NCBI GenBank assembly: GCA_964417645.1
Contig: CAYQIS010000003.1
Coordinates: 19,568-83,567 of the forward strand
Direction of reading: 5' to 3'
DNA: 64,000 nt
DNA from: an uncultured Spirochaetia bacterium
GTDB taxonomy: Bacteria > Oederibacteriota > PGYV01
Shown here: positions 2,441 to 19,257 of the stretch, piece after piece
Layout of the letters: each line of letters begins with the position of its first letter
How positions within the stretch are numbered: position 1 is the stretch's first letter
Position numbers and translations under genes: made by a program
Notes under the pieces: generated by a model
Seen by the model: only the letters and a program-made list of their open reading frames with translations
Told to the model about the DNA's origin: nothing
The model's database searches: none

Positions 2441-3565
2441 ATGCCTTCATTCAAAAAAATTGCCATATGCACCCCTTATTATTATCCTCTTTTCGGAGGT
2501 GTTCAGGAATATGTTTACCATCTTAAACACGAATATCAAAAACTTGGTTTTACCGTAAAAGTAATTACGGGAAATTTCAGCAGCACTCCCTCACATGATG
2601 AAAATGACGTTATAAGAATAGGCAGAGGCATTCCTTTCATGGTCAACGGCTCCACAGGAAGAATAATATTAATCCGCAGGGGAGAAAAAGTCAGGCAGAT
2701 GCTTGAAAGGGAAAATTTTGACATAATTCATTTCCAGGAGCCTTTTGTTCCGTTTTTGTCACACGACATCATTAAATATTCCAAATCCGTTAACATAGCA
2801 ACTTTTCACGCAAATTTTGAAAGCAACATTTATTACAGATTTGGAAGACACTTTTTAAAACCTTTGTGGGAAAAACTTCACGGTAAAATAGCGGTATCTC
2901 CTTCGGCAAAAAGCAGCATAAGCAGGTACTTTAACGGAAGAGACATTGAAATAATACCCAACGGGGTTTCAACATCAAGGTTTAATCCGGAAGGAAAAAA
3001 AATCGCCAAATTTAACGATGACTTCACAAACATACTTTTTACGGGAAGAATAGAAAAAAGAAAAGGGCTTATTTATCTTATTAAAGCTTTTGCAATTCTG
3101 AAAAAGGATCACCCAAAAACAAGACTTATAGTTCTTGGAAAAGGACCGCTTCAAGAGCGTCTGAAAAAAATGGTTTTAAAAGAAAAAATATCCGATGTTC
3201 ATTTTGAAGGTTTCGTAAAACTTGAAGAATTGGCTGATTATTACAGAACGGCGCACATTTACTGTTCACCTGCTCTTTTTGGCGAAAGTTTTGGTATTGT
3301 CCTTCTTGAAGCAATGGCAAGCGGCATACCCGCTGTTGCTTTTAATATCAGCGGCTACAATGATGTTGTTTCCAATCTTGACGACGGACTTCTGGCAATA
3401 CCGCGGGATGTTCATGACCTGCACGAAAAACTTGATCTTCTTGTTTCTCATCCGGAAATAGCCAAAGAACTGGGACGCCGAGGTTATGAAAAAGCCCAAA
3501 AATTCAGATGGGATATTATAGCCGCAAAAAACATTCAGTTTTATGAAAAATTTTTTAGGAAATAA
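2441..3565 (+). CDS. pimA: GT4 glycosyltransferase, phosphatidylinositol alpha-mannosyltransferase-like
   Basis: PYYYPLFGGVQEYV, HFQEPFVP, ATFH, GRIEKRKG and ESFGIVLLEAMA motifs closely resemble PimA; operon context. Confidence 0.75.
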   Translation: MPSFKKIAICTPYYYPLFGGVQEYVYHLKHEYQKLGFTVKVITGNFSSTPSHDENDVIRIGRGIPFMVNGSTGRIILIRRGEKVRQMLERENFDIIHFQEPFVPFLSHDIIKYSKSVNIATFHANFESNIYYRFGRHFLKPLWEKLHGKIAVSPSAKSSISRYFNGRDIEIIPNGVSTSRFNPEGKKIAKFNDDFTNILFTGRIEKRKGLIYLIKAFAILKKDHPKTRLIVLGKGPLQERLKKMVLKEKISDVHFEGFVKLEELADYYRTAHIYCSPALFGESFGIVLLEAMASGIPAVAFNISGYNDVVSNLDDGLLAIPRDVHDLHEKLDLLVSHPEIAKELGRRGYEKAQKFRWDIIAAKNIQFYEKFFRK

Positions 3566-3570
3566 TCCAG

Positions 3571-4449
3571 ATGACATATACAACAATTAAATTTGCGGTT
3601 TTTTTAATAACCGCTTTGCCAATAAATTTCATATATTGGATTGCAATTAACATAACACATATATTCTTTTTTTTCTGGAAAGAGAAAAAGATCAACACTG
3701 AAAGCAATTACAAAACCATACTGAAAGATATTCTTGGCAGAGAACCTTTGATTGCAGAAATTAAAAATCTTGCTTTTCAAAACCGTGTTCATTACGGAAA
3801 ATTCAGCGCCGAATTTCTTTATCTTCCAAAGCTTGCAAAAAAGGATATTTTTCCGGATATAACAAATAAGGATTCCATAGACCTTGCGCTTAAAAGAGGC
3901 CGCGGCCTTATTATAGGCACACTGCACTTTTCAAACTGGGACATTGCCGGCATTGTAATATCAAAATATTGCAAAAATGTATGGGCGGTTGCCGATGATT
4001 TGGGCGGAGATTTTTCGCGGTTTGTACAGGAAACCCGCGGAAAATACGGCATAAATATAATACTTCCGAATAAAAATCTTAAAGATGTTTATCGCTGTCT
4101 TGAAAATAACGGTGTTTTAAATGTTCTTATAGACAGGCCGGTTTCTGCCGAAGATAAAAACGGCACCGTTATTGACTTTTTTGGAAAAAAAGCGCGGGTA
4201 ACATCTTTCGCCGCAAGACTTGCCCTTAAAACAGGCGCTGATGTTGCCGTGGGCTGGACAGTAAGAGAAAACGGCAAATTCACCGCCTTTTGTTCGGATA
4301 TAATTAAATATAATGCAACAGGCAACACATCGGAAGACATACGCAATCTTACGCAGCTTATGTTTAAAGAAGCCGAAAAAGCCGTCAGAAAAAATCCGGA
4401 ACAGTGGTACATGTTCAGAAAATTTTTTATTGACCAGGAGACAAAATGA
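3571..4449 (+). CDS. second PatA/LpxL-family acyltransferase
   Basis: LHFSNWDIAG, LIDRP, DFFG, PEQWYMF motifs. Confidence 0.85.
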   Translation: MTYTTIKFAVFLITALPINFIYWIAINITHIFFFFWKEKKINTESNYKTILKDILGREPLIAEIKNLAFQNRVHYGKFSAEFLYLPKLAKKDIFPDITNKDSIDLALKRGRGLIIGTLHFSNWDIAGIVISKYCKNVWAVADDLGGDFSRFVQETRGKYGINIILPNKNLKDVYRCLENNGVLNVLIDRPVSAEDKNGTVIDFFGKKARVTSFAARLALKTGADVAVGWTVRENGKFTAFCSDIIKYNATGNTSEDIRNLTQLMFKEAEKAVRKNPEQWYMFRKFFIDQETK

Positions 4450-11384: not shown

Positions 11385-11393
11385 TTTTCCTCC

Positions 11394-11439
11394 AAAAAAA
11401 AAATCCGGTTAAAGCGGATTAAACCGCAATAACCGGATT
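11394..11439 (-). terminator. intrinsic terminator (attenuator) directly before the SD of the DUF4914 gene
   Basis: Minus strand AATCCGGTTA-TT-GCGG-TTTAAT-CCGC-TT-TAACCGGATT, then a T-run, then GGAGG. Confidence 0.8.
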
Positions 11440-11511
11440 ATTATATGACAAGCCCGTTTTAAACGTGCTTCTCATCAAATCTTCCAGATAATTTTAACTT
11501 ATCATTTAAAA

Positions 11512-11540
11512 TTTATATACCATAAATGTTTTATTGTCAA
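11512..11540 (-). promoter_or_regulatory. sigma70-type promoter for the DUF4914 leader
   Basis: TTGACA-N17-TATAAA on the minus strand. Confidence 0.75.
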
Positions 11541-11551
11541 ATGTTTATGAT

Positions 11552-11917
11552 CTAATTTATTTCTATTTTTTTATCCATTGTAAAAACTATTATTCTTTCG
11601 CCTGTTTTTGTGCTTATATCGGTGTGCATGGAGACAACCCCGGCACCCGATATCTCTTCTATGTTTTTTTCAAGCATTTTTCTGGAACTTTCAAGAAGTC
11701 TTACCCTTGTCTGTTTCACCAGCATTCTGCCTTCGCCGGGGTCTTTTGCCAATGTTTTTTCGGCTGCGGTAAGAACACCGGTTAAACGAACAAATATAAT
11801 ATCATCCAAAATTGTGACATTTGTATCTTCAGGGCCGCGGCCCATATGTTCTTTTTCAAATTTTATTATATATTCCCTGATTTTTGCTTCTGTCTGGCCT
11901 TTTGATAATTTTTTCAT
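11552..11917 (-). CDS. DUF2294 / MpsC-family protein
   Basis: EKEHMGRGP, LTAAEK.L, VKQTR..L, HTDISTKTGER motifs typical of the family. Confidence 0.85.
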   Translation of the reverse strand: MKKLSKGQTEAKIREYIIKFEKEHMGRGPEDTNVTILDDIIFVRLTGVLTAAEKTLAKDPGEGRMLVKQTRVRLLESSRKMLEKNIEEISGAGVVSMHTDISTKTGERIIVFTMDKKIEIN

Positions 11918-11953: not shown

Positions 11954-12054
11954 TATTGTTTTCAAATAAAACATCCCGTTCCATTTTTAAACACATTTTG
12001 TTTTAAGGTTTAACATAATCAAAAAATCTTTATTAAATATATGGTTTTTTTGTC

Positions 12055-12070
12055 TGGCATATCTTATGCA
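12055..12070 (+). promoter_or_regulatory. putative sigma54 (-24/-12) promoter of hsp20
   Basis: TGGCATATCTTATGCA has GG and GC at consensus spacing. Confidence 0.55.
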
Positions 12071-12115
12071 TATTATTTTATGGAAGTTAAAAAAAATTTA
12101 CAGGAGGTGGGTTTT

Positions 12116-12538
12116 ATGAAACTCATCAGAAGGTCTGATTTTGCAAGACCAACGCTCTTTGGGGATCTGTTTGACGATTTTTTCAGAACAGATATCCCGG
12201 CAGTACGTTCCATGATGCCCGCTATTGACATTGTGGAGGAAAAAGATCATTACACCATTAAAGCTGATCTCCCGGGCATGAACCAGAAAGACATTAAAGT
12301 TGAACTTGATGAAGGAGTTTTAAGAATTTCCGGAGAGAGAAACGAAGAGAAAAAAGAACAGGACAAAGACAATCACTATCGCTACTATGAAAGGTCTTTT
12401 GGAAGCTTCGAACGCCGTTTTGTGCTTCCAAGGGAAGTAAAAGAAGACGCAATAGAAGCAAAGTATGAAAACGGTGTTCTGAAAATCACAATTCCAAAAG
12501 CGGAAACAAGAAAAGCCAAAGAAATAGCTGTTAAATAA
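12116..12538 (+). CDS. small heat shock protein, Hsp20/alpha-crystallin family
   Basis: PAIDI.E, ADLPG, ERSFGSFER.F.LP, A.YENGVL.I.IPK; start moved to 12116 behind AGGAGGT. Confidence 0.93.
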   Translation: MKLIRRSDFARPTLFGDLFDDFFRTDIPAVRSMMPAIDIVEEKDHYTIKADLPGMNQKDIKVELDEGVLRISGERNEEKKEQDKDNHYRYYERSFGSFERRFVLPREVKEDAIEAKYENGVLKITIPKAETRKAKEIAVK

Positions 12539-12550
12539 AAACATTCGTTG

Positions 12551-12587
12551 AAAATAATAACCCCGCTTTAAGCGGGGTTATTATTTT
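12551..12587 (+). terminator. intrinsic terminator after hsp20
   Basis: 17-bp perfect stem AAAATAATAACCCCGCT/AGCGGGGTTATTATTTT. Confidence 0.85.
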
Positions 12588-12649
12588 GTATTTGAATGAT
12601 AATTTTCGCCTGATATAATTAGAATATAAATTATTTAAAGGCGGATTTT

Positions 12650-13057
12650 ATGAATAAAAAAGAAGAAAATGTTGATTTTTTAAATCTTATTCTTATGCTT
12701 AATCAAAATGCTCTTATATATCTTGGAGAATCCCCGCGTTTTATAGGAGGAATAAAAAAATCAAATCTGCCTCTTGCCCGACAGACAATAAATATGATTA
12801 AAGCAATATCGGATAAAACCCGCGGAAATCTGACAGCCGGAGAATCAAAACTTATATTCAGAATACTCGGAGAACTTCAAAAAAAATATGTTATGGCTTC
12901 CGGACTTATGAAACCGGAAACATCCGAAGATAAAAAGGCACAGGCGGTAAAAAAAGTGGCGGAAAAACATGCGGAAAACCTTGATGAGGTTCTTGACAAA
13001 CTTAAAGACAGCGAACTTGCGGAAATGCTGGATGAATTAAAAAAGAACGCCAAATGA
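12650..13057 (+). CDS. DUF1844 domain protein
   Basis: ALIYLGE...NLPLARQTI.M...TRGNL pattern. Confidence 0.7.
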   Translation: MNKKEENVDFLNLILMLNQNALIYLGESPRFIGGIKKSNLPLARQTINMIKAISDKTRGNLTAGESKLIFRILGELQKKYVMASGLMKPETSEDKKAQAVKKVAEKHAENLDEVLDKLKDSELAEMLDELKKNAK

Positions 13058-13557
13058 TATTGCCGGAAAAAATAAACAATATTTCCAAAATAGGGCTGAT
13101 TTCAGACACTCATGTACCTTCACGTTTAAGGTATTTGCCTTCGATTATTCATAAAATATTCAATGATGTTGATGCAATAATTCACGCCGGCGATTTTACT
13201 TCAAAAGATGTAATAACGGAACTTGAATCTGTTGCCCCATTATTCGGAGTTATGGGCAATATGGATCCTCATGAAATTCATTTACCTCAGCAAAAAACAA
13301 TTCTTGTAAACGAAAAATTTCTTTTTGCAATCTGCCATGGAGCAGGACTGCATTCAACAACCGAAGAAAGAATGTTTAATAAATTTAAAGAAATAAGACC
13401 TAATGCAATAATTTACGGGCATACACATATTCCAAAAATATCAAAAAAAGAAGAAATATTGCTTGTTAATCCGGGAAGTTTATGCTCTGCTGAGCCAAGT
13501 GTCGGTCTAATAGTTTTTAATGGAGATATTTTAATACCTGAAATAATTAAACTGTGA
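13054..13557 (+). CDS. metallophosphoesterase, YfcE/MJ0936 family
   Basis: SDTH, HAGD, GNMD, CHG, GHTH, NPGS motifs. Confidence 0.9.
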   Translation: MILPEKINNISKIGLISDTHVPSRLRYLPSIIHKIFNDVDAIIHAGDFTSKDVITELESVAPLFGVMGNMDPHEIHLPQQKTILVNEKFLFAICHGAGLHSTTEERMFNKFKEIRPNAIIYGHTHIPKISKKEEILLVNPGSLCSAEPSVGLIVFNGDILIPEIIKL

Positions 13558-19150: not shown

Positions 19151-19165
19151 ATTATCCTTTTTCAA

Positions 19166-19253
19166 GGGACACCGGCAACACCCCGGAAAATCCTTTTACC
19201 GCTGCTCCCTTCCGGGCCTGACGGGGTTCAAGGCTGCCGGGTGTGCCGGGCCC
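19166..19253 (-). ncRNA. ffs: small signal recognition particle RNA (4.5S)
   Basis: Minus strand contains the CCGTCAGGCCCGGAAGGGAGCAGCGG domain IV inside a long GC-rich hairpin; canonical position upstream of dnaX. Confidence 0.92.
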
Positions 19254-19257
19254 ATTT

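Follow-up and report, generated by a model that had tools for sequence, protein, structure and literature searches.

In a 64,000-nucleotide (nt) stretch of contig CAYQIS010000003.1 from an uncultured Spirochaetia bacterium (hereafter, the window), we examined a short leader on the minus strand that separates the gene of an MpsC protein (DUF2294/YbcI family) from an operon beginning with a DUF4914 gene. The leader holds a conserved, rod-shaped RNA whose base is shared with an intrinsic terminator, and about 25 homologous elements occur in metagenomic loci of several phyla. Judging from these sequences, the element very probably represents a new class of conserved RNA that acts in cis as a regulatory attenuator, and with moderate confidence we propose that it is an ON-type attenuator in which MpsC would act as the effector by clamping the closing helix (P1) of the rod. 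The evidence is comparative throughout. Comparison of about 25 mostly metagenomic loci (cited below by their L numbers) establishes that the RNA has a conserved structure, that it overlaps the terminator and that it is linked to mpsC, and it also defines the regulon; from these results we infer that termination is conditional, in which direction the switch works, that the RNA is bound by MpsC and what kind of signal is read.

To place the element, we describe the leader of the window in the direction of transcription, with all features of the locus on the minus strand. The mpsC gene (11552..11917, 121 amino acids (aa), Pfam PF10057, E = 1.4e-36) ends with a TAG stop codon at 11554-11552, and a sigma-70-type promoter begins 12 nt past it (11512..11540; TTGACA at 11540-11535, a 17-nt spacer and TATAAA at 11517-11512). 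This promoter was not listed by the consensus scan, solely since the scan rule demands a T at position 6 of the -10 hexamer. The conserved rod of 51 nt follows at 11435..11485, identified by a covariance-model match, its own minimum free energy (MFE) structure and covariation. In the rod, helix P1a pairs 11485-11483 with 11437-11435 (GGA.../...UCC), the 2x2 purine loop IL1 (internal loop 1) sets AG (11482-11481) opposite AA (11439-11438), helix P1b pairs 11480-11478 with 11442-11440, and a second internal loop (IL2) then leads to P2, the hairpin AUGA-G-AAGC-A-CGUU-UAA-AACG-G-GCUU-G-UCAU at 11475-11445. Besides P2, the rod takes in GGAAGAUU on the 5' side and AAUAAUCC on the 3' side, and the 3' strand of its base helix is common to the 5' arm of the terminator. 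The terminator stem (UCCGGUUA..GCGG..CCGC..UAACCGGA, 11437-11404) has a stability of -20.8 kcal/mol, can be extended by A-U pairs to 11439-11402, contains the inner helix GCGG/CCGC (11427-11424 / 11417-11414) that the consensus scan also lists, and stands flush with a U10 tract at 11403-11394, for a total span of 11394..11437. The Shine-Dalgarno sequence GGAGG (11393-11389) lies directly 3' of the U-tract and is followed by the ATG of DUF4914 at 11384-11382. The 128-nt leader as a whole has an MFE of -38.6 kcal/mol compared with -22.0 +/- 3.3 kcal/mol for dinucleotide shuffles (z = -5.1), and none of the 200 shuffles equaled it.

A first-pass annotation, made from the letters of the window, had reported the promoter, two hairpins, the terminator with its U-tract and the GGAGG, and all of these lie where it placed them. 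Its two hairpins need a different reading once relatives are considered. Hairpin 1 (GAUAA/UUAUC, 11487..11503) is present, but it has no counterpart in any homologous leader and is a lineage-specific 5' spacer outside the conserved element; hairpin 2 is also present, but it is only the upper part (P2) of the 51-nt rod. The same annotation had suggested that UAUCUGGA could pair with the 5' arm of the terminator as an antiterminator. The core of this suggestion holds, as its GGA pairs with the UCC of the terminator arm and forms the conserved helix P1a, but the outward extension of P1, in which UAUCU would pair with GGUUA, is not conserved elsewhere (12 loci compared by eye) and was discarded. 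A leader peptide was also considered and rejected: the window offers only the three-codon AUG-AUA-AGU-UAA, which is not kept in relatives.

The homologous elements share this architecture. When 26 instances were folded singly, all gave the same rod, and for most of them, the window included, the unconstrained MFE equaled the constrained one. The family follows the pattern (Y)GGAAGAC, a variable hairpin and (R)NAAGUAAGCC(R)AUAU..., the final part of which is the 5' arm of an intrinsic terminator. P1a has the form GGN/NCC, the 2x2 loop sets 5' AG opposite 3' AA or AG, and P1b has the form AYN/NRU; above them come a second small loop (often AA/AA), P2a of 4-5 bp (often GCAA/UUGC), a purine-purine loop (AG/AG, A/G or G/G), P2b and an apical loop that varies from 3 to 11 nt. 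The length of the rod is ~45-60 nt across copies, and the L079 copy carries a large insertion. Only ~10 nt are well conserved. The invariant or near-invariant ones, G1, G2, A4, G5 and A6 of the 5' strand and U, A, C and C of the 3' strand, are confined to the base of the rod, and the remainder is kept as helix and purine mismatches. All conserved nucleotides sit in pairs or internal loops, leaving no exposed seed.

For the comparison, the DUF4914 loci were collected regardless of the presence of mpsC (1 from genome contigs, 4 by exact-protein look-up and 80 from metagenome contigs), and a second sampling reached loci through diverse MpsC proteins. A covariance model (R1) was built from 14 copies with the structure supplied explicitly, and R2 is R1 after one refinement round. 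In a search of 538 kb, R1 returned the known copies, three weaker ones and nothing else, and mpsC was upstream of every one. The motif of the window scored 36.4 bits with R1 and 39.7 bits with R2 (E about 1e-6) and was the sole match in the 64-kb window. With R2, true copies scored 28-50 bits, the L079 copy 21 bits, and decoys that share the conserved ends no more than 16 bits; the motif of L100 (Verrucomicrobia) is weak (13-18 bits). Since decoys reach up to 16 bits, the weakest R1 matches (L042, L058, L079 and L100) rest on their context and not on the score alone. These decoys come from a scan of viral contigs with the conserved-end pattern, which gave seven matches, all in phage coding sequence and without a terminator or mpsC.

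The base pairs of the rod covary. In the Infernal alignment (A8), 85.5% of the cells are standard pairs compared with 20-47% when the partners are slid, 11 of the 14 pairs changed on both sides, and there are 76 double-change cells versus 26 +/- 4 in shuffles. In a curated, N-padded alignment (A6), 12 of 15 pairs covary; there the P1 columns were fixed by position and the P2 columns were taken from each MFE structure, which inflates the percentage paired by construction. The position-fixed P1 pairs covary as well: pair 7-46 is C-G in 14 copies and U-A in 8, and pair 3-50 is C-G in 7 and A-U in 6. Between the window and its Aerophobetes relative L086, the P2a helices are fully swapped (AUGA/UCAU vs GCGG/CCGC). 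A MAFFT alignment of the raw motif sequences yielded no structure with RNAalifold, since helices of unequal length had been misaligned; the explicit structure, the iterated models and the curated alignment resolved this. Homologous leaders with covariation, the absence of which would have spoken against the first-pass annotation, thus exist, and in each of them the terminator overlaps the conserved helix.

The element does not correspond to a catalogued RNA, as the first-pass annotation had supposed when it recognized no known riboswitch. At the gathering thresholds of Rfam 15, no family matched the leader in the window or in 16 homologous loci, and the signal recognition particle (SRP) RNA, which lies away from the leader, is the only Rfam family at threshold in the window. 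A permissive scan (E <= 10) of the window leader and the tandem elements of L109 gave chance-level matches only, of about 21 bits at most. The Trp operon leader RF00513 was considered among these and rejected, with 21.4 bits against a gathering score of 41 and a match that reflects a generic terminator shape. Our literature search returned nothing on such an RNA motif, on DUF4914 or on a role of DUF2294.

The way in which the rod meets the terminator suggests a switch. In most instances, the last 1-5 nt of the motif (median 3) are at the same time the first of the terminator 5' arm, and the stem is flush with the U-tract. In the window, the first 3-5 nt of the terminator are the 3' strand of P1a/IL1, with an overlap of 3 nt in the MFE structure. 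The two structures are mutually exclusive at the 3' strand of P1a, whose pairs covary as described above. When motif and terminator were co-folded, the MFE structure kept P1b and P2 and yielded P1a to the terminator in 18 of 21 instances, and forcing P1a cost a median of 4 kcal/mol over the 21 instances and +1.4 kcal/mol in the window. An intrinsic terminator is effective only if its hairpin reaches the U-tract, and termination should therefore be lost when the lowest 3-5 pairs cannot form. Readthrough appears to be the only way into DUF4914 in some lineages: the U-tract of the window, L022 and L041 is followed at once by the Shine-Dalgarno sequence, so that DUF4914 can be transcribed only by readthrough, and in the window no space is left for a promoter between terminator and gene. 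From this anatomy, a default-OFF, effector-ON switch would follow, with P1a/IL1/P1b as its recognition site.

The promoter is part of the same layout. A sequence TTGACA-N16-18-TAnnnT occurs at the same relative position in homologous loci, promoters lie 15-35 nt 5' of the motif in L003, L007, L052, L086, L092, L096, L100, L104, L109 and L110, and the -35 box TTGAC(A/G) falls in the last mpsC codons, over the stop codon or just past it in the window (11535-11554), L003, L007, L008, L052 and L109. The order of promoter, leader, terminator and open reading frame (ORF) that is seen in the window recurs in more than 20 loci. L109, an Endomicrobiales metagenome-assembled genome (MAG), has two full units of motif and terminator in tandem (3408-3459 and 3522-3569) between mpsC and PEPCK-purC (PEPCK, phosphoenolpyruvate carboxykinase).

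The gene upstream of the motif is constant. Among the DUF4914 loci, the motif is present in 17 of the 20 that have mpsC directly upstream on the same strand and in none of the 47 that do not (Fisher p = 3e-13, a value that overstates the number of independent events since it includes near-duplicate loci), and every confident copy of the motif has mpsC directly upstream on the same strand. When the loci were sampled through MpsC, the motif again occupied the interval from mpsC to the following operon in Aerophobetes, Latescibacteria, Scalindua, Verrucomicrobia, Endomicrobiales, Phycisphaerae and others. The neighbors on either side differ between phyla, mpsC excepted. What follows the terminator varies: carbonic anhydrase and PEPCK in L086, the Aerophobetes relative that shares the flanking genes of the window; an archaeal-type phosphoenolpyruvate (PEP) carboxylase (PEPcase_2) in L092 (Latescibacteria); beta-carbonic anhydrase in L096 (Scalindua); PEPCK in L100 (Verrucomicrobia, the weak match), L104, L109 (Endomicrobiales) and L110 (Phycisphaerae); and PurE/AIR carboxylase as the first regulated gene in L071 and L079. 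The downstream enzymes (DUF4914, PEPCK_GTP, PEPcase_2, Pro_CA and AIRC/PurE) all use or make CO2/HCO3-. A constant upstream gene and varying CO2/HCO3- genes downstream imply a regulator followed by its target site, as in hutP-hut. The leader had been annotated as that of the DUF4914 operon, which is accurate for the window, but it is tied to mpsC and elsewhere precedes the genes of PEPCK, PEP carboxylase, carbonic anhydrase or PurE. The first-pass annotation had also named the DUF2294 protein and CO2/bicarbonate as candidate signals, and the comparative data, with the mpsC link and the CO2/HCO3- regulon, point there.

MpsC itself belongs to a large family (3,134 clusters at 50% identity, E <= 1e-3) and is highly conserved, with R27, R44, K68, R71 and R108 invariant. 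Its AlphaFold model is confident (mean predicted local distance difference test score, pLDDT, 94.7) and has the order alpha-beta-beta-alpha-alpha-beta-beta; searches of the PDB by sequence or profile gave no informative relative. Two family representatives (P0309 and P0355) have a REC-MpsC architecture, which puts MpsC in the position of a response-regulator output domain. These fusions and the invariant Arg/Lys residues give indirect support to the idea that MpsC may bind the leader RNA. In L120 (3001-4065), a rod with the same AG/AG loops occurs at 3942-3994, directly after the REC-MpsC gene; a strong terminator with a U6 tract takes its 5' arm from the 3' strand of this rod, GGAAGACC, and stands before the genes of a DASS transporter (Na_sulph_symp/CitMHS) and a Usp protein. 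We regard this rod as a candidate related target that is suggestive only.

We propose the following mechanism. Transcription would start from the promoter next to the mpsC stop codon, and the nascent RNA would fold into the rod in the order P1a, 2x2 purine loop, P1b, loop, P2a, purine loop and P2b, the last 1-5 nt of which (..UCC in the window) would double as the start of the terminator 5' arm. Without the effector, the terminator would win and strip P1a, and transcription in the window would stop right at the ribosome-binding site. With the effector clamping the base of the rod (G1 G2. A4 G5 A6 / U A R. C C), the terminator could not close its lowest pairs, the shortened stem would miss the U-tract, and RNA polymerase would enter DUF4914-MFS-HAD and probably the carbonic anhydrase and PEPCK genes too. 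The effector would most likely be MpsC, as a putative RNA-binding antiterminator in the manner of HutP, PyrR and the REC-ANTAR regulators; as in the HutP and PyrR systems, the regulator gene lies immediately upstream of the RNA target on the same strand. MpsC would report the inorganic-carbon (CO2/HCO3-) or C3/C4 carboxylation status. We look for the signal in inorganic carbon or at the PEP/oxaloacetate node because the regulon and the family link to MpsAB point there.

Several observations weigh against MpsC as the effector of such a switch, and some of them against the switch itself. We infer conditional termination from the anatomy. The overlap of P1a and terminator is short (median 3 nt), and in 3 of 21 instances the MFE structure retains both. 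Many of the loci are mutually related or near-duplicate, and their counts do not stand for independent events. No motif follows mpsC in L037, L044/45 and L111/112, nor does one follow the second paralogues of L013 and L110. The L120 rod reaches only 12.6 bits with R2, and its otherwise invariant A6-U pair is flipped. A Foldseek comparison of the MpsC model with the PDB gave nothing below E = 0.02 and no recognizable RNA-binding fold; its weak top matches are TRAPPC3/Bet3-like and suggest, if anything, a small-ligand-binding fold. In staphylococci, mpsC lies at the end of the mpsAB operon (PMC6689103). In S. aureus, a weak terminator separates mpsC from mpsAB, and the deletion of mpsC has no phenotype, the gene being dispensable for bicarbonate transport by MpsAB (PMC6689103); this dispensability is the one published result on the family.

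The strongest competitor is a riboswitch, in which the rod would bind a small molecule or ion (bicarbonate/CO2, Na+, PEP, oxaloacetate or another carboxylation-related metabolite) at P1/IL1; the ligand would stabilize P1a and block termination, and mpsC would be a mere neighbor. We take this alternative seriously but consider it rather unlikely, and a protein effector (MpsC) more likely than a small-molecule ligand. The classical ON architecture, with a closing helix over the terminator 5' arm, fits a riboswitch well, as do the tandem units in L109, the coherent regulon centered on CO2/HCO3- enzymes and the many copies with their own promoter, which are true 5' leaders; simple hairpins of this kind, with conserved internal loops, are also known among the ion riboswitches. 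A riboswitch, however, needs no particular gene 5' of its own promoter, and the motif was absent from all 47 loci without mpsC and present in 17 of the 20 with it. Moreover, ~10 conserved nucleotides confined to the base of the rod are more typical of a protein site, and the REC-MpsC fusions put the MpsC domain in an output position.

The same attenuator could also answer to another trans factor, a protein or a small RNA (sRNA), with MpsC as a co-regulated sensor or enzyme that acts elsewhere. That MpsC lacks a known RNA-binding fold and that its weak structural neighbors resemble ligand-binding domains would be explained in this way, but mpsC is the only gene consistently linked to the motif, and we find such a factor very unlikely. 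About equally poor, or slightly poorer, are the chances of a passive element, in which hairpin and terminator would end the mpsC transcript as a structured 3' untranslated region with no switch, and the downstream genes would depend on other promoters or on constitutive, leaky readthrough. The motif does start 10-30 nt after the mpsC stop codon in about ten loci, and several loci have 100-800 nt, sometimes with extra ORFs, between terminator and DUF4914. Against this stand the strong promoters between mpsC and the motif in many lineages, the window included, and the ribosome-binding site directly after the U-tract in the window, L022 and L041; a plain terminator also needs no covarying 45-60-nt rod with a base complementary to its own 5' arm, and the second tandem unit of L109 is far from mpsC. 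The least probable explanation by our estimate is an independent sRNA gene, whose promoter, rod and terminator would yield a trans-acting sRNA of ~125 nt with DUF4914 nearby by chance, for although it has its own promoter and a strong terminator and prematurely terminated leaders can act in trans, its orientation is constant, it always lies directly upstream of carboxylation-related genes, the Shine-Dalgarno sequence of the following gene adjoins its terminator in three lineages, and its conserved nucleotides are paired or in internal loops and not in an exposed seed.

The proposed attenuator with MpsC as its effector resembles several known systems in its logic (hutP-hut, pyrR-pyr, REC-ANTAR or an ON riboswitch) and is a member of none. 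HutP, once activated by its ligand, binds the leader RNA, where it recognizes single-stranded UAG repeats, and prevents termination. In the hut operon of B. subtilis, as here, a small regulator gene comes first and a terminator then blocks the structural genes. MpsC, however, has no similarity to HutP in sequence or fold (its only Pfam match is PF10057, and HutP did not appear among its matches in the PDB), the RNA here is a base-paired, covarying rod and not two sets of three single-stranded UAG repeats, and many copies here have a separate promoter between regulator and leader. The ANTAR regulators (EutV, AmiR, NasR type) likewise have an output domain that occurs alone or fused to REC, and a hairpin over a terminator before the regulated genes. 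ANTAR targets are two short hairpins with hexaloops, whereas the present RNA forms one long rod that has three internal loops of purines and apical loops of 3-11 nt, and MpsC has no ANTAR domain. ON riboswitches (the pbuE adenine riboswitch and the hairpin-shaped ion types nhaA-I and DUF1646) share the overlap of the P1 3' strand with the terminator 5' arm, the default termination (predicted here) and the tandem units; the present element differs in having no Rfam model match at E <= 10, few conserved nucleotides and a strict upstream protein gene. The Trp operon leader RF00513 also places a hairpin before an intrinsic terminator, but there are neither a leader peptide nor Trp codons here. Finally, IL1 (5'-G5 A6 Y7 / 5'-U A A/G) carries the sequence signature of the UAA/GAN internal-loop motif, a possible structural resemblance that is a lead only. 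The UAA/GAN motif occurs in rRNA, RNase P and introns and often serves as a docking site; in the present family, 5 of 24 motif copies have UAG and 1 of 24 has UAU instead.

The RNA fold, its likely partner family and the regulon are new, and the terminator/antiterminator principle is known. In its widest form, the proposal would be that MpsC/DUF2294 founds a new family of RNA-binding antiterminators with the rod as operator, senses inorganic carbon or the carboxylation state and switches on PEPCK, PEP carboxylase, carbonic anhydrase, PurE and DUF4914 in many mostly uncultured phyla; we hold this tentatively and think it possible, not probable. That the RNA itself is a bicarbonate/CO2 riboswitch appears quite improbable to us. 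CO2/bicarbonate sensing in non-photosynthetic bacteria is poorly understood, and an MpsC-rod switch for inorganic carbon, if true, would be the first dedicated RNA-level CO2/bicarbonate regulon and would at last provide a function for staphylococcal mpsC. The proposal gives two DUF families a testable function, with a 51-nt RNA and a 121-aa protein as a defined pair, and it may uncover an RNA-binding fold, or a class of riboswitch ligand, not seen before. The RNA family is uncatalogued, and its working covariance model can annotate metagenomes of phyla that are poor in known regulatory RNAs.

Downstream of the leader, the window encodes DUF4914 (11384-9525, Pfam E = 2e-269, with a weak PEPCK_ATP resemblance), an MFS transporter of the lactate/oxalate-formate family (9509-8346, Pfam and NCBIfam), a HAD-IIIA phosphatase (8349-7801, Pfam and NCBIfam), a beta-carbonic anhydrase (7728-7195, Pfam) and a GTP-dependent PEPCK (7148-5277, Pfam), all on the minus strand. 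The DUF4914, MFS and HAD genes are tightly packed or overlapping, and the site scan of the window found no terminator-like site between them. Promoter-like sites precede both the carbonic anhydrase and the PEPCK genes. In the closest relatives, the motif stands directly before carbonic anhydrase-PEPCK (L086) or DUF4914-carbonic anhydrase-PEPCK (L003), and in the window carbonic anhydrase and PEPCK are possibly co-transcribed with DUF4914-MFS-HAD as one readthrough unit. DUF4914 adjoins PEPCK, carbonic anhydrase or PurE in several loci. Its alignment has an invariant, P-loop-like HEGASGGGKSE stretch and a sub-threshold PEPCK_ATP match; a PDB search found no solved structure related to it by sequence. 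DUF4914 may be a PEPCK-like carboxykinase.

Some further features of the loci were noted in passing. L001, a Spirochaetia MAG, has the same DUF4914-MFS-HAD operon without mpsC; its leader (2860-3000) contains a degenerate remnant, GGACGGA...GGAAUAAUCC, with neither a terminator nor a model match, and this looks like decay of the RNA where the MpsC protein is absent. Three loci have a conserved ORF of 140-166 aa (FFILLERF...YFNDEGYIDIWR.PHL) between the motif and DUF4914 (L012 1995-2477, L013 516-1016 and L049 2019-2444), and two others have in this interval a small Cys-containing protein with a hydrophobic N-terminus (L007 1454-1828 and L008 2096-2485); neither protein matched a Pfam family. 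In L092 (3588-4038), two short ORFs between the motif and the PEP carboxylase gene match only the N-terminal parts of GreA/GreB and biotin carboxylase and are probably gene remnants. On the other side of mpsC, the window has the divergent genes of Hsp20, DUF1844 and a Metallophos_2 phosphoesterase (12041-13557, plus strand), which are syntenic with the Candidatus Aerophobetes MAGs L086-L091, and an origin of the window in this lineage is therefore probable. Compared with these MAGs, in which MpsC is 83% identical, the window has DUF4914-MFS-HAD between the motif and carbonic anhydrase-PEPCK. The bacterial small SRP RNA (RF00169) lies at 19159-19257 of the window on the minus strand and scores 70 bits.

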